A stretch of 64,000 bases of DNA, from sequence record OL631479.1; one strand, 5' to 3'. The notes under the pieces are model-generated. The model searched no databases and was not told where the DNA came from. It saw only the letters and a list, made by a program, of their open reading frames with translations. The stretch comes from Escherichia phage ECML-10. The translations under genes were made by a program, and so were the position numbers. This document shows positions 2,689-59,002 of this stretch, one piece after another; the first letter of the stretch is position 1, and every line of letters begins with the position of its first letter.

Positions 2689-5600
2689 TTACTTCAGTTT
2701 CTCTTGCAACCCAGTAACAACCTCTGTCAATTTTTTAACCTGCTCCTCAAGGGCGGTTATTTTATCGTCCTGTTCCCTGCAAACCTGGACAAGCAAGCCT
2801 GTTACGGCTGCGTAATCCACGCTGTAGAATCTTTCCTCTGTTATCAAAGGAGTTCCATCTTGATCAGGGTTTGGGATTTCCTTTCTTTGCACGAAAGAGC
2901 TAACTGCTTCCGGCAGCGCTTCAAGCACTTCTTGTGCTATAACACCTGCATAAGGCATACCGTTCTCTTTAAGAGTGTAAGTATAACCCTTCATCTTCCG
3001 GATAGCTTCTAACGCATCAGGAATAACAGATATGTTGTCTTTCAGGTCTCTGTCAGAGCTCTGATTGACAGATGTGCAATTCACAGCACCGTTTACAGAA
3101 AGATATCTTGATTTATCCGGCAAGGTACCGCAATGCCATACCCAATTTGCTTGAGACTCGTCAAGAACCTTAAACTCTAACACGTTTGGACGATCCCCTG
3201 TGCTGCCGTTACCCCAATAGTGCATATGGGCGGCATTAGCAGGCATGTTGCCACCGTTATTAGTAACATGGCTTCCAGAAATATATACCTTTAACTCTGA
3301 GGTCGGTATTTCCCCTTCGGGAGTTGTTCCTCCATATCTGAAGCTAACACCATTGCCACCTGTTTGGGTCCACGGGCCCCAAGTGAAGGTTTGTCTCACC
3401 ATATTACCATAACGTATAAATCTATCGCCGTGATAGGTAATATACTCTTGAACACACCCATTACCGTTATTGGCGTTATTCTGCAACACAATAAGTGTTC
3501 CAGCTTCATTTACCGGATAATGACGATCATATGTTGCATCATTATTTGCCGATTGATGGTAAATGCCTTCCCACAACCCATTATAGGTGTCAAGGTCTGA
3601 GGTACCGAGACCCTGACCCCTGTGCTGCATAGCCTTATTCCAGGGGTGGTGATTACCGCCTTCTATAGACCTGGTGTATAAGTTACTTTGTCTGCCAGCA
3701 ATCTGGAAAGCGTAGTTTCCCGAGAATCCTACAGATAAACCTCCTACAACCATGGTGTCTTGTGGACCGTTAACATTACCAGCCATTATTTTTGACGGGT
3801 TATTAGGCCCGAACTGGTTGTTCCAGTCTCCACCAGTATGACATACAAAACCACCTGGGGCTGAAAAAGTACCATCCTTATTGAAGTTGTAGAATCTATG
3901 AGCTGTGCCCACAACATCTCGAACAATAACTTGACCAGCCTCTGGAGTAGACCTGAACTCTGCTTGACCTTTAAGGCCAGCACCATTACCGCATTTAGAG
4001 GTAAACGTGCCGTTAGTTAGATCCTCTGTTCCATCTGATGCACACTGGAATCCTGCGTTAGAGAATAGCGCCTTTCTAGGACCACTGTAGCACAAATAGT
4101 CAAAACCGTCAGCCCATAGCTCTACTTTAGGCATGTTCATTTTGCTCATTATCGCATAGCGTTCAGCAGTGCCTATATAGTGCCACTGTGTGCCGCCGCC
4201 AGTGTAGAACCCAGAGGTACCTTTGAAGTCAACAATAGGTCTGGTGTTGGTATTGTTATCTCCGAGAACAGCCAGATTTAAATCTGCTGACTGGAGAGGT
4301 GCAACGAACTTAACACCGTCCTGATTGTCTGTTACAGAGCCAACCTGGTAATCTTGCTCCCTGGTAAACACCTCGACAACATTTCTACTTGCGTATATGC
4401 TGACAGGGAAAGCACGCGCCTCTGCATAGAAAGCAACATATTCTTGTTTACCCCTTGTTGGAGCAACCATCCCAAGAAGTGCTTTTTCATTCTGGTAGAA
4501 ATTTACTACCCCGTAGAAAGAGTCTCCTCTGTCTGTCCAACCACCAGTTCTATAGTGACACTGTAAGGTAGCACAGTTCATAGGGTCATTTCCAGATGAC
4601 GATCTGGTAACTATGGTAATATCAGTACCAGTTGCTGGAGCATAGTACGGATCTGTTCTAACGATGATCGGGTAGTATTTCCCATCTTCCATCCCTGCGG
4701 TTCTTGGCAGTGTTAAGAAGTCTTTCACACCTGCTGCTATAGGAACTTTGAACAGATTCTGAGCATCTGCTAGAGTTGTAGCCCCGGTGCCACCTGCGGC
4801 TTGAGGTAGAGGTTCCCACTTGGCCTTCCGGTTGTTATAAACACCCCATTCCAGAGTGCCGTTACCGGATTCGTCCATCCAGCCATCCCAGATAACCATC
4901 TTGGCGGCTTTCTTAGATCCCCAGAAGCCTCTTTCTGCTCCTGAACTACGTATCCACTCTCCAAGTCCCCAGTTTGTCAGCTGACCAGTAAGATCCCCAA
5001 CCTGCATGTATTTAGGGCAGTCTAATACACCGTCTTCGCGGAAACCCAAATATCTATGAGTTTCAGATCCTTTTGCACCTTTGTGGAGGTGGATTGTCAA
5101 CCAAGCCTTATTGTCGTTTCTTACCTCAGAGTAGATCCTATATCCATGCTCAAGGACACCGTCAGCGCTGTATTTGTCCCCGTTAACAATACCGGATGCT
5201 GACTTAACATCAGCAGAACTTTGAGACAGGTAAAGGTGCCCGAAGGTAGGAGAATTTCTAGACCCGAGACCGATGTGCGATCTAAAGGTATCATCGTTAC
5301 GAGGTCTAACCATCGGCTGCCATGCAGTCCACTGATTTGTGTTGGCCTGATAGGTTCTCAAATACCAAACATCTACGTTAGAGAATGGGTAGTATTCCTG
5401 ACGACAACCTGTACCGCCGTTAGCATTGTTCTGCCAAACAATCAAGTGACCAGCACCAGAACCTGCAGGGTAACCATTTGCCTCAGTTGCATAAGCAGTC
5501 ATCGGCTGGTAGTATACACCATCCTGATTACCAGTCAAGTTATTGATATTGAAATTTGGCTCAAGGGCTGCACGTTGCTTATAGAAAGCACCGATATTGA

Positions 5601-27321: not shown

Positions 27322-28291
27322 TTATATTCAAAGGTGGTCGCAACACCACCTTCCGCACCTTTACGTGCTGCTGCATGTTACCATGCAGAGTAGACTATAT
27401 CACCACCCATTTCAGGGTGCTTCGCTTTTCGAGCGCCATAAGCTTGCGCCCTACTCCCTCTCGGGATAGTCGTTGAACTACATTACCAATCGTAATTGTT
27501 TGAAATATAGGTGTAAGTCTTACGGTCTTTTATTCCTTTAACAACACTAAAACTTACTCCCCACTTCTTAGCTATTTTATTTACACACAAGACCTTATCA
27601 CTAAGATCCTCGCAGATACCTATTATCTTGTGCTCACTTATCCGATTAGAGGTTGGCACTTTTCTAAAGTTAAACTCTTTAGAAATATCTGGGTATACTG
27701 AGCCATTCTTTATACCACTTACAAGTGGTTGATTGACACCAAACATTTCACAAATGTCTTTTACCCTTGCGCCTTGCTCTAACAGCCTACATATTTCAAG
27801 AGCAGTGGCATCATCCAGAGACCTGTATTTATTGACATAGTCCTTTTTAAGTCCCATTTCATGAGCGTGATGTGTGTTTTCCTCAGGCGTTGTCCACTCA
27901 AGGTTCCATGCGGCGTTATTCAACTTATTACCATCTAGGTGGTTTACTTGAGTTTTTACGCTGGGATTGTCATTATCAACAAAAGTCATAGCAATCACTC
28001 TGTGAACGAGCACTTGGAACTTTTTACCGTCCTCGCACAAAGTTACCATAGCATAGCCAGTCTTTTTCTGCACATTAGGATGGAGGAATTTATTAGAATA
28101 CAGACTGTAAATTCTGCCATCGTATGTAGCACAATAATGATTGTAGCCTAAAAAGCCTAAATTTTTCATTTCAAACATCTCCCTACTACAGGTTCGGAAG
28201 GGTAATTATAGCTGCTGATTGTCCGTTTAGCAATCGGATTTCCCAGCAATTAACGAAGTTATTCGACGTGCATTTCTGCACGAAGCCACTA
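27322..28291 (-). other. Intervening sequence in terL, putative group I intron carrying an HNH ORF
   Basis: ~970 bp between the two terminase halves; same-strand HNH ORF; 3' part contains a GATATAGTCT-like element. Boundaries approximate. Confidence 0.45.
27483..28178 (-). CDS. HNH homing endonuclease
   Basis: 231 aa; HNH motif VNHLDGNKLNNAAWNLEWTTPEEN; located inside interrupted terminase gene. Confidence 0.8.
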   Translation of the reverse strand: MFEMKNLGFLGYNHYCATYDGRIYSLYSNKFLHPNVQKKTGYAMVTLCEDGKKFQVLVHRVIAMTFVDNDNPSVKTQVNHLDGNKLNNAAWNLEWTTPEENTHHAHEMGLKKDYVNKYRSLDDATALEICRLLEQGARVKDICEMFGVNQPLVSGIKNGSVYPDISKEFNFRKVPTSNRISEHKIIGICEDLSDKVLCVNKIAKKWGVSFSVVKGIKDRKTYTYISNNYDW

Positions 28292-29041
28292 TCATTTAAT
28301 GGTTGCGCCTATGAACGAGAATGACAACGGTCTTGGCTTGATCTCTACACCCAGTCCGTTAACCGTGGTGTATTTCTCTATCAACTCTTCTTTAGAGTCT
28401 CCCCATATAAATTCACCGTCGCGTCGGATAAAATATCTTTTCTTACCGCATTTCTCCGGATCTGGATACCCTTCATCGTCCAACCACCATCTAACCAGTT
28501 TGGCAAGCATGTGTTCTGAATCGGGGTTACAGCTGATAACCATTCTTGATGGATACTTTGACTGAGATCGCAGACGAGACATCAGATAGTCTATCTGCTC
28601 CCATTCGAACTGCGTGCCCTCATCGAAGCAAACCATGGTGTACTCAAGCCCCTGATGGTTAAGCTTATCTTGTACATACTCCATGTGGCAGTATTTTACA
28701 ACAGCTCCCTTTTTGCTTCTATCCCACTTGCCAGTGCTCGGATCAAACCGTGGAAAAATGAACTTATGATCCTTCTCTCTGAACTTTGGCTTAATGTTTT
28801 CAGGCAGATCACTATAAATAGCTACTGCTTTAGGCCATAGTCCACCCTCACCTTCCAACTGTGGGGTTGTTCTTCGGAACATAACCACAGAGCTGTGGGG
28901 GTCATCAATAATTTTAAGTGGCATCAACTGCAAGAGGAACGACTTGCCAGACCCTGCGGCACCGCCGATTACCAAAATATCTGCATCGTTTTCTAGGATC
29001 ATCTTCTGCTTTTCAGAACACGGTCCGTAAATCTTAGACAT
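28292..29041 (-). CDS. terL: Terminase large subunit, N-terminal ATPase part (putative exon 1)
   Basis: Walker A GGAAGSGKS, Walker B-like VCFDEG; 249 aa. Confidence 0.75.
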   Translation of the reverse strand: MSKIYGPCSEKQKMILENDADILVIGGAAGSGKSFLLQLMPLKIIDDPHSSVVMFRRTTPQLEGEGGLWPKAVAIYSDLPENIKPKFREKDHKFIFPRFDPSTGKWDRSKKGAVVKYCHMEYVQDKLNHQGLEYTMVCFDEGTQFEWEQIDYLMSRLRSQSKYPSRMVISCNPDSEHMLAKLVRWWLDDEGYPDPEKCGKKRYFIRRDGEFIWGDSKEELIEKYTTVNGLGVEIKPRPLSFSFIGATIK

Positions 29042-30143: not shown

Positions 30144-30221
30144 GTGGTCTCCACGGAGTGATTCGAACACTCGACCTCCTGATCCCAAATCAGGCGCTCT
30201 ACCAAGCTGAGCTACGCGGAG
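30144..30221 (-). tRNA. tRNA-Pro (anticodon UGG)
   Basis: Hand-folded cloverleaf: 7-bp acceptor, T-loop TTCGAAT, anticodon loop UUUGGGA, encoded CCA. Confidence 0.75.
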
Positions 30222-30232
30222 TATTCATTATT

Positions 30233-30307
30233 TGGTGGCCCTGGGTGGAATTGAACCACCGTCTGGCGATTATGAGTCGCTTGCTTGAACCTTCCAGCTA
30301 CAGGGCC
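30233..30307 (-). tRNA. tRNA-Met (anticodon CAU; could be Ile-lysidine type)
   Basis: Acceptor GGCCCTG/CAGGGCC, T-loop TTCAATT, anticodon loop CUCAUAA, CCA encoded. Confidence 0.7.
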
Positions 30308-30308
30308 A

Positions 30309-30384
30309 TGGTGCTGATGGCAGGACTTGAACCTGCAACCTATTGATTACAAATCAATTGCACTACCAATTGTGCTACATCAGC
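30309..30384 (-). tRNA. tRNA-Thr (anticodon UGU)
   Basis: Acceptor GCTGATG/CATCAGC, D-stem GCAC/GTGC, anticodon loop UUUGUAA, T-loop TTCAAGT, CCA encoded. Confidence 0.7.
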
Positions 30385-30390
30385 AAAAAG

Positions 30391-30488
30391 GTGCTAGGTG
30401 ATGGAATCGAACCACCTATGTATTCAACGACTACCTCGTCTATTTTCAGGATTAAAAATCCTCGCCCTTGCCAAAGGGCTTACCTAGC
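30391..30488 (-). tRNA. Atypical tRNA-like gene (~98 nt), isotype unresolved
   Basis: Perfect 7-bp acceptor and 4-bp D-stem, T-loop TTCGATT; anticodon arm has only 4 bp with loop UUUUUAA (UUU) and a ~30-nt variable region. Confidence 0.4.
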
Positions 30489-30596
30489 TCAGTATGTTGA
30501 CCATGTTGCTAGTCGGCGATGACGACTGTAACATTTGATAATCCGGTTCTGCTTCCGGCTTTCGCTTAATTACAAGGTCAACAATATGGCAGAGGA

Positions 30597-30686
30597 TAAT
30601 GGAATCGAACCATCATCGAGTCATCCTCAACGGGACGGTTTTCAAGACCGCTTGAGCACCATTGCTCCCTACCCTCTTTTATAAAC
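30597..30686 (-). tRNA. tRNA-Ser (anticodon UGA)
   Basis: Type II tRNA with long variable arm; anticodon loop CUUGAAA; T-loop TTCGATT; CCA encoded. Confidence 0.65.
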
Positions 30687-30791
30687 AATACTGATAATGA
30701 CACTGATTTTCGAGCAGTTAGTGACTAGTATAAACGACGATAAATATCAATGCCATTATCTGTATGATTTATGCATTTAAAAATATAAATT

Positions 30792-30879
30792 TGGTGGTGA
30801 GTGATGGAGTCGAACCACCAGAATCGCAATGATAACAGATTTACAGTCTGCCCCGCTACCCCTACGGAATTAACTCACC
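30792..30879 (-). tRNA. tRNA-Tyr (anticodon GUA)
   Basis: Acceptor GGTGAGT/ACTCACC, anticodon loop CUGUAAA, long variable arm, T-loop TTCGACT, CCA encoded. Confidence 0.7.
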
Positions 30880-31009
30880 TAAATACTAATATTTAAATTC
30901 TTTTTAAAATAGCTAGTGTTCTCACCACTAACTATGAGGTATCGGTAAAGTGGTTACCGCCACTTGCCGAAGATTTACTCTGCTAAAGTAAGCTACATTA
31001 AAAAGAACT

Positions 31010-31084
31010 TGGCACCCCGTACTGGACTCGAACCAGTGTCAACGGCTTAGAAGGCCGCTGCTTTATCCACTAAGCTAACAGGGC
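31010..31084 (-). tRNA. tRNA-Arg (anticodon UCU)
   Basis: Acceptor with two G-U pairs, D-stem GCTT/AAGC, anticodon loop CUUCUAA, T-loop TTCGAGT, CCA encoded. Confidence 0.65.
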
Positions 31085-54560: not shown

Positions 54561-54839
54561 ATGAGCTGCGAAAAATCTTTTTTCATCATCATTTACGGTA
54601 AGGATAACTGCCCACATTGTGTCAGAGCAAAAGAATTTGCAATCAGCAAAGGTCTGCCTTTTGTATATAAGACACTTGGCGAGGGCTACACAAAAGAAGA
54701 GCTTATTGAGAAGTGTAGTCCAATCGTCCCCCGAACGTTGCCGCAGATCTTCTTAGAAAGCGATCTTGACAGTATCCATATAGGCGGTGCCGACGATTTC
54801 ATCTCTTTTGTTAAGAATGGTTTTGGAGAGAAAAAGTGA
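54561..54839 (+). CDS. Glutaredoxin-like protein
   Basis: 92 aa; CPHC redox motif; between nrdB and nrdD. Confidence 0.75.
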   Translation: MSCEKSFFIIIYGKDNCPHCVRAKEFAISKGLPFVYKTLGEGYTKEELIEKCSPIVPRTLPQIFLESDLDSIHIGGADDFISFVKNGFGEKK

Positions 54840-55699
54840 AAGTTGTAAAACGGGACGGTAGAGAAGAGTTCTATAACGGAATTAAGGTGATCAAGGCGGC
54901 AGAGTCCGCCTTATTTGAGTCTGGACATACTGAAGAAGAAGCTTACCGGATCGCCTGCGAGGTTAATGAAGTTGTTGCTAACAATCTACCAACCGACCAG
55001 TGCACGATCTCTGTAAAAAATATCCATATCCTTGTTGAAGACGCTCTTATGGATATGGGTTTAAAATGTGCAGCCAGAGAATACATCCAGTATAGGCAGA
55101 CAAGAGATAATAACAGAGAGGCAGGTGGAAAACTGCTCGCAGATATTAGTGGCTTCTTGGATCGCACTTGTGATGAATTTACAAAAGAAAACGCAAATAA
55201 GCCTACCAATCATGTACACACTCATCGTGACCTGCTTGCAGGCATCCTTAGCAAACACCTTGCATCAACACAGATCCTGCCAGACCGTGTCTCAGAAGAG
55301 CACAATAAAGGCTTCATCCATGTGCATGATCTTGACTACTTGATCAGTCCGTTAACAAACTGTTGTTTGGTAAATTATCCAGATATGTTGGAAAACGGAT
55401 TCAACATTGGTAACGCCCATGTCAGTAAGCCGAAGTCAATAGGGGTTGCAACAACAATCCTTAGCCAAATCTCTAGTGCGGTAGCTAGTGCTCAATATGG
55501 GGGTCAGACTATGAGCCATATTGATCATTATCTGGCACAGTATGCTGAAGCGACCTATGAGAAGAACCTTAAATTTTGCCAGGAACATTGGTTGCCAGAT
55601 GCTGAGACTGTTGCAATGCAAATGACAGATAAAGACGTATTTGACAGTATGCAGACATTACTTTATCAAATCAACACGTTAACCTCTGTCAACGGTTAA
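54836..55699 (+). CDS. nrdD: Anaerobic ribonucleotide reductase NrdD, N-terminal part (putative exon 1)
   Basis: ATP-cone-like N-terminus MKVVKRDGREEFYNGIKV; ORF ends at in-frame stop presumably inside intron. Confidence 0.75.
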   Translation: MKVVKRDGREEFYNGIKVIKAAESALFESGHTEEEAYRIACEVNEVVANNLPTDQCTISVKNIHILVEDALMDMGLKCAAREYIQYRQTRDNNREAGGKLLADISGFLDRTCDEFTKENANKPTNHVHTHRDLLAGILSKHLASTQILPDRVSEEHNKGFIHVHDLDYLISPLTNCCLVNYPDMLENGFNIGNAHVSKPKSIGVATTILSQISSAVASAQYGGQTMSHIDHYLAQYAEATYEKNLKFCQEHWLPDAETVAMQMTDKDVFDSMQTLLYQINTLTSVNG

Positions 55700-56547
55700 C
55701 AAACTGGCCGTTGTAAAACTCTCCTAACCTCATAAGAGGGGTCGGTAAATCCGGCTAACGGGGAACGCTAAGGCGAAAGCTATGCCAATCCCGTGACTAG
55801 TTCTTACAGGAGTTGGAACGGTTGTAACGACTAACGAAAGGCAGAGATGCTTGACAAACATTTCTGAACCAAGTAGTGTAGGGGTTAGTTGAAATACTAA
55901 CTTCGAAATGGAGAGGCTCTATGAAAAAGATCATTCTTAATGGTGAAGAATCAAACTATGTGATTGATGAGGTTGGAAACGTATACGGAAAACGTGGAAT
56001 GCTACACCCAATATTGTGGGGAGGTTATGGAAAAGGTAACAAGCATGTTAAACGCCGTTATATGTACTCTTTCAACCACAAAGGTAAAAAGATTCGAATC
56101 CAAACCTCAAGGATTGTTGCCTTGTATTGTTTGCCGGATGTCCCAGAAGACCCTGAAAACTGGGAAGTGAATCATAAAGATGGCAATACATTGAATGATC
56201 ATCCGTCTAACCTAGAGTGGGTTTTGCCGGAAGATAATAAGAGACATGCTTTCCGAACAGGACTTTGTCCAGGTAAGTGCTATAGGAAAGTGCAGGCATA
56301 CAAAGGGAAAACCTTGGTGGGTGAATATCCTTCACTCTATGCCTGTGCAAAAGCCTTAAATTTGAACGTAGGTAACGTTCATAGGGCTATCGAAGGAAAT
56401 GCCGAAGGTAAGCATCTCACAATAAAGGGTTATTATCTTATTGAAGTAGAGTAAGAGATAGTCTGGCCCTGTGGAAACACAGGGAGGAGACAGCAGACTC
56501 CATTCATCACATTAAGTTTAGGACTGGATACCTCGGTCTTTGGTAGA
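55700..56547 (+). other. Putative group I intron in nrdD carrying an HNH ORF
   Basis: ~850 bp between the two nrdD parts with ~220 nt structured leader before the HNH ORF. Boundaries approximate. Confidence 0.5.
55921..56454 (+). CDS. HNH homing endonuclease (intron-encoded)
   Basis: 177 aa; HNH motif VNHKDGNTLNDHPSNLEWVLPEDN. Confidence 0.8.
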   Translation: MKKIILNGEESNYVIDEVGNVYGKRGMLHPILWGGYGKGNKHVKRRYMYSFNHKGKKIRIQTSRIVALYCLPDVPEDPENWEVNHKDGNTLNDHPSNLEWVLPEDNKRHAFRTGLCPGKCYRKVQAYKGKTLVGEYPSLYACAKALNLNVGNVHRAIEGNAEGKHLTIKGYYLIEVE

Positions 56548-57756
56548 ATGATTACCAAAAACTACTTGAAAGTCCACAAAATGGGTCTTGGTGAAGAACG
56601 TATCACACCTGTGTTCCCTAAAGTGCTGTTCTTCCTAGAAGAGGGTGTCAACATGAACCCTGGAGATCCTAACTATGATTTGAAACGATTAGCTCTGGAA
56701 TGCTCTGCAGAGCGGATTTATCCTGACTTTGTTTCTGTTCCACTAAATCGTAAAGTGACAGGCTCGACAGATGGTAAAGTAACGAGCATGGGTTGCCGGA
56801 GTTTTCTTAGCAAATACAATGACTTGGAAACAGGCGAGGAGAAATACCTTGGTAGATTTAACTTAGGCGTTGTTAGCCTTAACCTGCCAATGATTGCGGC
56901 AAAAGCTAAGACGGAAGGTGTTGATTTCTTTGCCGTTCTTGACGAGTATCTGGATTTGGCATATGAAGCTCACCTTGTAAGGGTTAACCGTCTGAAAGGC
57001 ACCAAAGCAGGGCAGAACCCTATCATGTGGTGTGAAGGCGCTCTTGCTCGCCTGGATCCTGAAGAGAGTATTGATAAACTCTTCTATGACGGGTACGCTT
57101 CCATCAGTATTGGGTATATTGGTGTGTATGAAACCTGTCAGATTTTGGGCAGGGAGGGTGACAAGGCTTTAGCTCTTGGAATACTTCAGCACATGAGAGA
57201 TGCTTGTGAGCGATACAAGAAGGAAAGTAGACTAGCGTTTAGCTTGTACGGCACCCCTTCTGAGAGTCTATGCTATAAAGCTGCAACCTGTCTGGATCGT
57301 GAATATCCTGAAGTGTTGAAGCACGAGCATGAATATCTCACCAACAGTTTCCATCAGCCAGTATGGATCAATAGCTCTCCTTTTGATAAGTGGGAGTATG
57401 AGGAAGGTTTTGCTATGATCTCCTCTGGTGGCAACATCGGATACGTAGAGACACCAAATCTGAAAAACAACTTAGATGCTTTGGAAGCTCTTGTTGATTT
57501 CGGATATAAACACATTATGTATTTTGGTATCAACCAGCCTGTGGATAAATGTCTCAAGTGTGGTTTCTCTGGTGAGTTCAGTGCAACAGCTAAAGGCTTT
57601 GTATGCCCAGAGTGCGGAAACCATGAAGAGGGAACGATCAGCGTAATTCGACGTGTGTCTGGATACCTTTCCAGTCCTAACTCTCGTCCTTACAATAAAG
57701 GTAAGCAAGCGGAAGTTATCGAGCGAGTTAAGCACTACGGAAGTTGTGGTTGCTGA
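56548..57756 (+). CDS. nrdD: Anaerobic ribonucleotide reductase NrdD, C-terminal part (putative exon 2)
   Basis: Glycyl-radical motif RRVSGYLS near C-terminus; Zn-ribbon CLKCG...CPECG. Confidence 0.8.
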   Translation: MITKNYLKVHKMGLGEERITPVFPKVLFFLEEGVNMNPGDPNYDLKRLALECSAERIYPDFVSVPLNRKVTGSTDGKVTSMGCRSFLSKYNDLETGEEKYLGRFNLGVVSLNLPMIAAKAKTEGVDFFAVLDEYLDLAYEAHLVRVNRLKGTKAGQNPIMWCEGALARLDPEESIDKLFYDGYASISIGYIGVYETCQILGREGDKALALGILQHMRDACERYKKESRLAFSLYGTPSESLCYKAATCLDREYPEVLKHEHEYLTNSFHQPVWINSSPFDKWEYEEGFAMISSGGNIGYVETPNLKNNLDALEALVDFGYKHIMYFGINQPVDKCLKCGFSGEFSATAKGFVCPECGNHEEGTISVIRRVSGYLSSPNSRPYNKGKQAEVIERVKHYGSCGC

Positions 57757-57822
57757 TACTTGACAAAAGCCACAAGGATGTGGCACACTTAGTTCAAAGA
57801 TTAGAGCTAAGAAGGTTCAGCA

Positions 57823-58950
57823 GTGTCCAGAAAACTTACAACAGATGAGTTTATAAAGAGGGCAAAAGCAGTTCATGGAGATAAGTATGATTACTCTAAG
57901 GTTGAGTATGTAAATGCCTGCACCAAGGTTATAATTATCTGCCCATATCATGGAGAATTTGAACAAGCTACCCACCAACACCTTGCAGGACGAGGCTGCC
58001 GGGAATGTGGAAAGCTAAAAATGGCACAAAGCCACATTATACCACATAAGGAGTGGTTGAATGTTATCCAAGAGGTCAATCCTTATGTCGAAGTGATTGG
58101 AGAAATAATAAGCTGCAGAACAAAAGTGCCGTGCCGCTGCAAAATTTGCAGTCATGAATGGTCAGCAATGCCTTATCTTCTTAAACAAGGACATGGGTGC
58201 CCTAGATGCGGCAAGCTAAAATTCGCACAAAGCAGAGCTATAGCCCATACCGAGTGGGTCGAGGACATAACGAAGAAAAATACATATATTGAAATAGTAG
58301 AAAGGGTTAAAAATAGCGATACACCAGTATTGGCACGATGCAAAATTTGTAGTCATGAATGGTTAGCAAGACCATCCCATCTTAAACGAGGGCATGGGTG
58401 CCCTAGATGTAAAGGCAATGCAAAGAGATCCCATGTGGAATGGGTAGGGCATATAAAGGTTGTCAATCCAAGTATTAAAGTGCTTGGAAAAATTAAAAAC
58501 GGCAGTGCAAAAGTATTATGTAGGTGTAAGATTTGTGATTATGAATGGTCTCCTGCTCCTATTAGGCTCAAGCAAGGACATGGGTGCCCTAGATGTGCTA
58601 ACTACGGCTTTTTATCGTACAATCACGGCAAACTTTACATTATGGTTGATGACTTAGAAGTACCAACACTTATGAAGATCGGTATTAGCGTCAGTGTCGA
58701 AGAGAGAAAAGATAGGATATTGAAAAGTGCCAAAAGGGCAGGGGTAGGTATTTATGATCTCTACCTGGCGAAAACGTGGGAAGGATCAACTCAAAACATG
58801 GCAGATTTAGAAAAATCTGTGCATAAGGCCTTCAGCAAGTATAAAATAAACTTCCCTGTAAAATTTGATGGTAGCACAGAATTCTTCTACTACAGGCCTG
58901 AAGTGTTTGACACGGTGGAAGAAGTATACAGGAAGATTTGTGGTAAATGA
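57823..58950 (+). CDS. Zinc-finger repeat protein with C-terminal GIY-YIG/T5orf172-like domain (putative nuclease)
   Basis: Four ~60-aa repeats (C-x-C-K-I-C...HEW...GHGCPRC) also visible as nucleotide repeats; C-terminal KLYIMVDD...MKIGIS; GTG start. Confidence 0.35.
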   Translation: MSRKLTTDEFIKRAKAVHGDKYDYSKVEYVNACTKVIIICPYHGEFEQATHQHLAGRGCRECGKLKMAQSHIIPHKEWLNVIQEVNPYVEVIGEIISCRTKVPCRCKICSHEWSAMPYLLKQGHGCPRCGKLKFAQSRAIAHTEWVEDITKKNTYIEIVERVKNSDTPVLARCKICSHEWLARPSHLKRGHGCPRCKGNAKRSHVEWVGHIKVVNPSIKVLGKIKNGSAKVLCRCKICDYEWSPAPIRLKQGHGCPRCANYGFLSYNHGKLYIMVDDLEVPTLMKIGISVSVEERKDRILKSAKRAGVGIYDLYLAKTWEGSTQNMADLEKSVHKAFSKYKINFPVKFDGSTEFFYYRPEVFDTVEEVYRKICGK

Positions 58951-59002
58951 TCGTAGAAAGATATGCATATCTTAAATATGCTATTAACTAAGGAGGTTCA
59001 GT

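Follow-up and report, generated by a model that had tools for sequence, protein, structure and literature searches.

Putative mobile group I intron with an HNH homing-endonuclease gene in nrdD, the class III ribonucleotide reductase gene, of Vequintavirus phages

In Escherichia phage ECML-10, the gene for the class III ribonucleotide reductase, nrdD, is with high probability interrupted by a mobile T4-like group I intron of subgroup IA2, which carries its own HNH homing-endonuclease gene. The intron was identified in a 64,000-nucleotide (nt) stretch of the phage genome (sequence record OL631479.1), which is referred to here as the window. It has exact boundaries and a conserved fold, its reading frames and those of the surrounding gene are intact, and it is present in some close relatives of the phage and absent from others. 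From this anatomy and from the behavior of the family, we infer splicing, endonuclease activity, and homing. A first-pass annotation of the window had proposed a group I intron with an HNH homing endonuclease in nrdD. The proposal is borne out by the exact boundaries, canonical splice sites, ordered IA2 core, covariation and folding, and the match to a covariance model built from T4 introns only. The window belongs to an rV5/FFH2-like Vequintavirus; its DNA shares 94–98% identity with genomes of this genus, for example those of magaca, FFH2, and FV3. The region from 53.4 to 59.6 kb contains nrdB, a glutaredoxin gene, nrdD, an extra open reading frame (ORF) of 375 amino acids (aa), a 38-aa ORF, and nrdG. 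The features described below are on the plus strand unless stated otherwise.

The first exon of nrdD (54836-55696), whose 3' boundary was determined by comparison with intron-less alleles, starts with a GTG codon that overlaps the stop codon of the glutaredoxin gene, and ends with ...GUC AAC GGU, encoding V-N-G. It encodes the ATP-cone and the N-terminal part of the NRDD domain. The second exon (56494-57756, stop codon included) starts with CAG ACU CCA UUC (Q-T-P-F) and encodes the region of the catalytic Cys together with the glycyl-radical motif RRVSGYLS and a Zn ribbon. The first-pass annotation had assigned the ORFs 54836-55699 and 56548-57756 to the N-terminal ATP-cone part and the C-terminal part of NrdD, respectively, and the profile matches agree with this. 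The product of the first ORF (287 aa) matches the Pfam ATP-cone at residues 1-91 and positions 1-154 of the NRDD profile, and that of the second matches NRDD positions 156-562 and the Pfam Gly_radical domain. The Zn ribbon can be read directly, alongside RRVSGYLS, as CLKC...CPEC (CxxC...CxxC). However, the ends of the two ORFs are not the ends of the exons, which are at 55696 and 56494, and the interruption is 797 nt long rather than the approximately 850 bp given previously. Exon 1 stops at position 154 of the NRDD profile and exon 2 resumes at 156, so that nothing is missing between the two pieces of NrdD. Together they provide the ATP-cone, the NRDD barrel, and the C-terminal glycyl-radical domain with a Zn ribbon of a class III ribonucleotide reductase.

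The in-silico joining of 54836-55696 and 56494-57756 results in a 2124-nt frame encoding a 707-aa NrdD. The alignment of the deduced protein to uninterrupted homologues, a check that the first-pass annotation had proposed, is gap-free at the junction: the sequence is continuous across ...SVNG|QTPFITLS... relative to NrdD of T4 (1h78, E 3e-167), and it aligns over its full length, without a gap at the junction, with the bacterial NrdD 9d3x. The spliced and intron-less nrdD alleles are all exactly 2124 nt long and have a single terminal stop codon. The ratios of synonymous to non-synonymous codon changes are 42:4, 76:4, 76:11, and 51:8. In several public records, including those of the BASEL phages and Pr121LW, nrdD begins at an ATG 213 nt downstream (~55049), which removes most of the ATP-cone. 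The upstream GTG at 54836 is the more likely start, because the match to the Pfam ATP-cone begins with the very first residue of the ORF that opens with this GTG.

The arrangement of the locus could also be explained by an endonuclease cassette that cut nrdD into two independently translated genes, the products of which assemble into an active enzyme without splicing. Most GenBank records annotate two separate nrdD coding sequences (CDSs) together with a stray HNH gene, and there is a precedent in nrdA of Aeromonas phage Aeh1, which is split by mobE (PMC3653736, PMC7344957). However, the first ATG of exon 2, at 56548, is positioned 54 nt inside the exon, and there is no in-frame start codon before it. 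Independent translation would therefore cost 18 conserved residues (QTPFITLSLGLDTSVFGR). The loss of these residues and the equal length of the stop-free alleles argue against the split gene, and also against the possibility that nrdD is a pseudogene. Furthermore, an ORF-less form of the insertion found in related phages, which is only 257 nt long and holds no gene, nevertheless breaks the reading frame at the identical position, and the intervening RNA constitutes a complete and covarying group I core. Two separately translated genes are thus extremely unlikely.

The boundaries of the intron, 55697-56493, were determined by comparison with natural alleles and are supported by structure and homology. 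The 797-nt element starts with UAACAAACUG and ends with ...GAGACAG, the last base of which is the terminal ωG at 56493. The TAA at 55697-55699 that closes the first NrdD ORF is formed by the first three bases of the intron. The 300-nt region around the spliced junction is matched in one uninterrupted piece (300/300 nt) in many sister phages, including Pr121LW, JES2013, PMBT16, and EduardKellenberger. In AlexBoehm, bov22_2, CM1, nom, and others, it is matched in two pieces spanning 557 nt, and these phages contain the 257-nt ORF-less insertion at the same base. Approximately 74 records are intron-less, 14 contain the ORF-less intron, and 27 the form with the HNH gene; rV5 itself has an intron-less nrdD. 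The co-occurrence of intron-less, ORF-less, and ORF-containing alleles at one base among close relatives is a signature of mobility.

Both forms of the intron open with UAACAAACUGGCCGUU directly after ...AACGGU, and close with a G directly before CA(A/G)AC.... The ωG is conserved (G56493 in the window, G2618 in AlexBoehm), whereas the bases preceding it differ (ACAG versus ACCG); similarly, the U at the 5' splice site is retained in both forms while the bases adjacent to the splice sites vary. Alignment alone leaves an ambiguity of one base in the boundary, as the intron-less alleles read AACGGG|CAA. The register was selected according to the group I rules, since it is the only one that places a U at position -1 and a G at ω in both intron forms. 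A boundary one base to the left, which requires no substitution relative to the intron-less allele, was rejected because it would place a G at -1 and an A or C, differing between the two forms, at ω. The base at -1, which has to be a U for the formation of helix P1, is a U in every intron-bearing allele examined (GGU|CA(G/A)), whereas both intron-less alleles that were inspected have a G there (GGG|CAA). Compared with the spliced 60-nt junction, each of the 74 intron-less records shows at least three mismatches. The bases of the junction around 55696 and 56496 may be co-conversion markers or variants of the target site. An intein was rejected, because the insertion starts with TAA (55697-99) and the length of the ORF-less form, 257 nt, is not a multiple of three. 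A group II intron was rejected because the core is that of group I.

The structure of the intron was derived by homology with the T4 introns td, nrdB, and sunY (the nrdD intron of T4), and with the second nrdD intron of phage JEP1, and each pair was verified by a script. The IA2 core, consisting of the P3-P8 and P4-P6 domains, the P7 pseudoknot, and J8/7, is complete, and the helices from P1 to P9 were all verified base by base. P1 is formed by CAACGGU at the end of exon 1 (55690-96) and the internal guide GCCGUUG (55707-13), with the wobble pair U55696•G55707 at the 5' splice site. The bases CUG at 55704-06 and CAG at the start of exon 2 (56494-96) form a possible P10 pairing. P3, CUCUCC (55719-24) paired with GGAGAG (55910-15), is supported by covariation, and the position of its 3' strand is homologous to that in td, nrdB, and sunY. 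Two hairpins are located in J3/4: CCUC-AUAA-GAGG (55728-55739), identified by the pair check and minimum free energy (MFE) folding, and GUCGG-UAAAU-CCGGC (55741-55755), supported by covariation and MFE folding. The P4-P5-P6 domain (55758-55819) contains P4 formed by ACGGGG and UCCCGU, P5/P5a capped by a GAAA loop, and P6 formed by GUUCUUAC and GUUGGAAC. Its string CUAACGGGGAAC...CAAUCCCGUG is nearly identical to that of T4 td. The first-pass annotation had described the region upstream of the HNH ORF as an ORF-free leader of about 220 nt. It is indeed free of ORFs (221 nt, 55700-55920), but forms the 5' two-thirds of the ribozyme core.

The P7 helix is formed by GACUA (55829-33), within the motif AACGACUA common to td, nrdB, and sunY, and UAGUC (56459-63), and makes a pseudoknot with P3. 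Another GACUA, at 55795, was considered as the 5' strand of P7 and rejected in favor of the one at 55829 on the basis of homology. Between P7 and the 3' strand of P3 (55842-55909) are P7.1 and P7.2, the presence of which is the hallmark of subgroup IA. P7.1 (55842-66) is formed by CAGAGAUG and CAUUUCUG, which passed the pair check and stand in the same order as in T4 introns. P7.2 (55884-901), formed by GUUAGU and ACUAAC, is preceded by GUAGGG and followed by CGAAAU, which is also the case in the T4 introns. P8, CUCUAU (55917-22) paired with GUAGAG (56446-51), holds the HNH ORF in its loop, and is followed by J8/7, UAAGAGA (56452-58), which starts with the stop codon of the ORF. P9, CCCUGUG-GAAA-CACAGGG (56467-84), is followed by a short tail leading to ωG at 56493. 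The core strings CUAACGGGGAAC...CAAUCCCGUG, AACGACUA, GUAGGG...CGAAAY, and GAGAUAGUCUG with the subsequent hairpin occur in the same order in td, nrdB, and sunY. A σ70-like promoter (TTGACA-17-TAGTGT) spotted by eye in the loop of P7.1 was not supported by a consensus scan and was discarded.

The comparison of the HNH and ORF-less forms provides evidence that the fold is under selection. The two forms are 86% identical from P1 to P7, and cannot be aligned from P7.1 to P8, yet the helices are located at equivalent places. A C-G pair of P1 in the HNH form is replaced by A-U in the ORF-less form, with the exon partner undergoing a synonymous GUC/GUA change. In P3, C-G and U-A are replaced by G-C and U•G, so that the helix reads CUCUGC/GCAGGG in AlexBoehm; in A147 and navn the 3' strand is GCAGAG, restoring an A-U pair. 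Further differences are U-A versus C-G in P6, C-G versus U-A in P9, and GUCGG/CCGGC versus GUCAGC/GCUGGC in the second J3/4 hairpin. Both J3/4 hairpins are backed by pair-preserving or compensatory changes as well as by MFE folding. Among eight allele variants, no substitution breaks a pair, and all six variable sites of the HNH form outside the ORF are positioned outside the helices. When the ORF-less intron and a mini-intron of the window lacking the loop of P8 were subjected to MFE folding without constraints, P1, the long-range P3, P4-P6, P7.1/P7.2, P8, and P9 were recovered, with z-scores of -3.7 and -5.7 and no shuffled sequence as stable.

The divergence between the two forms is organized in blocks. 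The segment that cannot be aligned comprises P7.1-P7.2-P3'-P8 (55836-56452 in the window, 2503-2576 in the ORF-less record), and an identity of 86% resumes from J8/7. The 5' strand of P3, although distant in sequence, has changed to match this segment. The block-wise divergence and the matching change in P3 imply that the HNH form is not a simple insertion of an ORF into the ORF-less form, nor is the reverse the case. Instead, the sequences suggest that the two forms are related by an exchange of modules with another intron. The P4-P5-P4' segment of the ORF-less allele (2422-2471, corresponding to 55754-55803 of the window) is 88% identical over 50 nt to Bacillus phage S4-2 (PQ069204, 21172-21221), a similarity that presumably points to a related intron in that distant phage. 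When IMG/VR was searched with the P4-P5 string, only a single further contig was found, but no divergent relatives.

A covariance model of the P7-P9 domain, R1, was built from T4 td, nrdB, and sunY only, and the second intron of JEP1 was left out. In the ORF-less allele, R1 gives a full-length match of 32.2 bits (E 1.7e-6), which ends exactly at the predicted ωG. The second JEP1 intron is matched with 88.5 bits. Testing with group I covariance models, as the first-pass annotation had advised, gave a divided result, in which the T4-only model detects the ORF-less allele, whereas the Rfam model RF00028 remains below its gathering score. As a control, RF00028 assigns 105 bits to the T4 sunY (nrdD) intron and misses the proven T4 introns td and nrdB. 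The shortfall of the window intron hence carries little weight. The cores of the two missed introns are interrupted by ORFs, whereas the ORF of the T4 nrdD intron is outside the core. The RF00028 alignment of the window copy was rejected, since it places P1-P6 inside the HNH ORF and only its 3' end is correct. Its P3 for the ORF-less allele, CGCUG/CAGGG, is mismatched and not conserved in the window, and the covarying CUCUCC/GGAGAG was used instead.

The ORF in the loop of P8 (55921-56454) encodes a 177-aa protein related to the homing endonuclease I-HmuI (1u3e). It matches Pfam HNH_3 with 29.3 bits, above the cutoff of 24.8, which confirms its earlier recognition as an HNH ORF, and is assigned to phrog_59. 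Residues 8-160 align with residues 8-159 of I-HmuI (E 2.7e-4), so that a His and an Asn of the protein correspond to His75 and Asn96 of 1u3e. We take these to be the catalytic and the distal residue of I-HmuI, respectively, and Asp74 to be metal-binding. The ratios of synonymous to non-synonymous codon changes in the ORF are 15:2, 5:0, 5:0, and 3:1; judging from this mostly synonymous divergence, the ORF is a maintained gene that is under purifying selection. The ORF is embedded in the ribozyme: its last two sense codons constitute the 3' strand of P8, and its UAA stop opens J8/7. Its Shine-Dalgarno sequence GGAG is part of the 3' strand of P3 (GGAGAG, 55910-15), and the A and U of its AUG are within the 5' strand of P8 (CUCUAU). 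Because of this overlap with P3 and P8, folding of the ribozyme and translation of the endonuclease should be mutually exclusive.

Several observations weigh against the identification of the element as an active mobile group I intron. The intron has no P2, which is usual but not obligatory in IA2 introns, and P1 is connected to P3 by UAAAA. About 28 nt of additional hairpins in J3/4, between P3-UAA and UAA-P4, are atypical for IA2, in which J3/4 normally has 3–5 nt, contacts P6, and makes tertiary contacts. No description of a comparable J3/4 insertion was found in a comparison restricted to a small number of introns. The window as a whole yielded no intron in the Rfam gathering scan: the scores of RF00028, 27.7 bits for the window (E 9e-5) and 29.8 bits for a full-length match to the ORF-less allele (E 9e-6), do not reach the gathering score of 50. 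The R1 match to the ORF-interrupted window copy is weak and by itself not significant (12.5 bits, E 0.32), and ends at 56493. The HNH protein has an Asn in place of Asp74 of I-HmuI, and its match to the NUMOD-like PF22083 reaches 18.4 bits, below the cutoff of 27. Finally, nrdD is dispensable in aerobic laboratory growth, and the viability of the phages alone is therefore no proof of splicing.

The low Rfam scores, the unusual J3/4, and the dispensability of nrdD in aerobic culture would fit a decayed intron relic that no longer splices and leaves nrdD effectively a pseudogene in the intron-bearing phages. Nevertheless, both exons form one stop-free frame with strongly synonymous-biased divergence in the intron-bearing alleles, the core helices are unbroken in all eight variants with compensatory changes within them, and neither intron form has lost the splice-site U or the ωG, although the neighboring bases vary. 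We consider such a relic very unlikely.

In a somewhat less improbable alternative, the ribozyme is active in splicing, but the intron is not mobilized by the HNH protein, or has ceased to be; the protein could be inactive, an inefficient nickase, or reliant on an endonuclease supplied in trans. The substitution of Asp74 by Asn is compatible with this alternative, as is the precedent of mobE of T4, which acts in trans for the nrdB intron. In addition, another endonuclease-like gene, the 375-aa T5orf172 ORF (57823-58950), is located nearby, and the ORF-less form is also widespread (14 records). However, the HNH ORF is intact in 27 records with at least 98.9% aa identity and the 15:2 ratio of codon changes given above, and its catalytic His and distal Asn are conserved. 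Among phages, it occurs in this intron only, and its next relatives are less than 40% identical. A non-mobilizing HNH protein is accordingly an unlikely explanation, and a mobile intron with its own endonuclease is preferred.

The chemistry of group I introns suggests how the element would function. The nrdD pre-mRNA would fold into the ribozyme, and an external guanosine would attack after U55696, held in P1 by the guide at 55707-55713. The freed end of exon 1 would then attack after ωG56493, with P10 aligning exon 2. Joining of the exons would produce ...AACGGU|CAGACU... (...GUCAACGGU|CAGACUCCA...) and the 707-aa NrdD reading ...SVNG-QTPF.... By analogy with its family, the I-HmuI-like HNH protein may nick or cut the intron-less nrdD of co-infecting relatives near the insertion site, and recombinational repair would copy the intron in, converting flanking exon bases as well. 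It is possible, though this combined proposal is tentative and more doubtful than probable, that the intron represents a distinct P2-less IA2 variant with J3/4 hairpins, that splicing and HNH translation are strictly alternative, and that a part of another ribozyme came in along with the endonuclease.

A close parallel to the element is the nrdD (sunY) intron of T4, which is inserted in the same gene and within the same conserved part of NrdD. It belongs to the same subtype IA2, sharing AACGACUA, GUAGGG...CGAAAY, GAKAUAGUCUG, and the P9 hairpin, and likewise combines a mobile intron with an endonuclease. However, the T4 insertion site, GAGU|...G|AUGAAG (QAYE-Y|EVN), is 32 nt upstream of that in the window (SVNG|QTPF). 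The T4 intron encodes the GIY-YIG endonuclease I-TevII 3' of the core, whereas the window intron encodes an HNH protein in the loop of P8. The reservation in the first-pass annotation that the splice site and endonuclease family might differ from those of T4 was thus justified. No DNA similarity was detected between the two introns outside the short core motifs. The different sites and endonuclease families and the lack of wider DNA similarity indicate that the two nrdD introns are not orthologous.

I-HmuI, encoded by the DNA-polymerase intron of phage SPO1, has 174 aa, compared with 177 aa of the window protein, and is similarly encoded in a phage group I intron. The two proteins are collinear over residues 8-160, which include the N-terminal DNA-binding part, the HNH motif, and a putative NUMOD-like C-terminus. 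Nevertheless, I-HmuI is a nickase of a Bacillus phage that is only distantly similar, resides in another host gene and phylum, and has Asp where the window protein has Asn before the catalytic His.

The td intron of T4 and the second JEP1 intron contain the string CUAA(A)CGGGGAA...CAAUCCCGUG, nearly identical to that in the window, and share the order P7/P7.1/P7.2/P3'/P8/P7'/P9. The second JEP1 intron likewise lacks P2, with P1 leading through UAAA to P3. In contrast, P3 continues directly into UAAA-P4 in td and the second JEP1 intron, whereas two covarying hairpins of approximately 28 nt are inserted in J3/4 of the window intron, and the ORF is upstream of P7 in the former two and in L8 in the latter. 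The second, td-like intron is present in exon 2 of nrdD of JEP1, phita32, and "Campylobacter phage C2", has approximately 760–800 nt (3459-4255 in one carrier locus), and is absent from the window. It encodes a different HNH ORF (29% identical) and is inserted immediately upstream of the codon for the conserved Cys, so that it separates TSMG from CRSF. Its empty site in the window is 56793|56794. Certrevirus CB7, which also belongs to Vequintavirinae, has HNH-carrying introns in nucleotide-metabolism and terminase genes at other sites, whereas its nrdD is uninterrupted. Splicing of CB7 terL, pol, nrdA, and nrdB has been shown by RT-PCR (PMC7344957).

As a member of a well-known class the element is unexceptional, and it has already been recognized in database annotation. 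The BASEL Vequintavirus records (WalterGehring, MaxBurger, EmilHeitz, AlexBoehm, and others) contain the same element with 97–98% identity, and their annotation joins two pieces into one nrdD CDS, with a "putative homing endonuclease" inside it. The intron boundaries were set by the BASEL authors using comparative genomics (Maffei et al. 2021, PMC8594841). The lengths of the CDSs are consistent with the boundaries given here, as 2708-797 = 2168-257 = 1911 nt, the length of the intron-less CDS. The publication on rV5 reports only terminase introns (PMC3606486). Literature searches found no paper on the structure, class, splice-site rules, allele series, or activity of this nrdD intron. Approximately 20 GenBank records MG0656xx labeled "UNVERIFIED: Campylobacter phage" are Vequintavirus genomes, 93–99% identical to E. 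coli phages at the nrdD locus, and their host label is probably wrong, judging from the sequences.

Other mobile-element candidates and features were observed elsewhere in the window. A second td-like group I intron is located in the large terminase gene terL (region 27361-29041, minus strand); its P7-P9 core (27482-27361) is matched by R1 with 78.8 bits (E 7e-19); the Rfam gathering scan of the window missed it. The pieces of the locus on the minus strand are an ORF of the N-terminal part of TerL (29041-28292), a 231-aa HNH ORF (28178-27483), and a further TerL piece (26940-26515). The terL intron corresponds to the terminase introns of rV5 (PMC3606486). Downstream of nrdD, a 1.2-kb cassette (57786-58990) containing the 375-aa ORF replaces 22 nt found in FFH2 and AlexBoehm between nrdD and the 38-aa ORF/nrdG. 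In the 375-aa protein, DUF4379/CapR treble-clef zinc fingers are repeated, and the C-terminal domain is of the T5orf172/MUG113 (GIY-YIG-like) type; the protein belongs to phrog_559/681, described as "endonuclease". WalterGehring and JEP1 encode diverged versions at the same spot. From its sequence, the ORF looks like a free-standing homing-endonuclease gene, parallel to mobC, which T4 carries between nrdD and nrdG. A cluster of six tRNA genes (30148-31084, minus strand) was identified by the Rfam gathering scan.

The nrdD intron reveals no new mechanism, and its main value is in the correct annotation of one 707-aa enzyme and a mobile intron in widely used phages of E. coli O157 and in candidates for therapy. 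The Vequintavirus phages provide a series at a single base, composed of the empty site, the ORF-less intron, and the endonuclease-bearing intron, and some genomes contain the second intron at the codon of the active-site Cys. Such an allele series is convenient for studies of the homing cycle, co-conversion, and the invasion of introns by endonucleases. With the sites in T4, in the window, and of the second JEP1 intron, phage nrdD has three distinct intron sites, in support of the view that conserved catalytic motifs in ribonucleotide reductases are targeted repeatedly.

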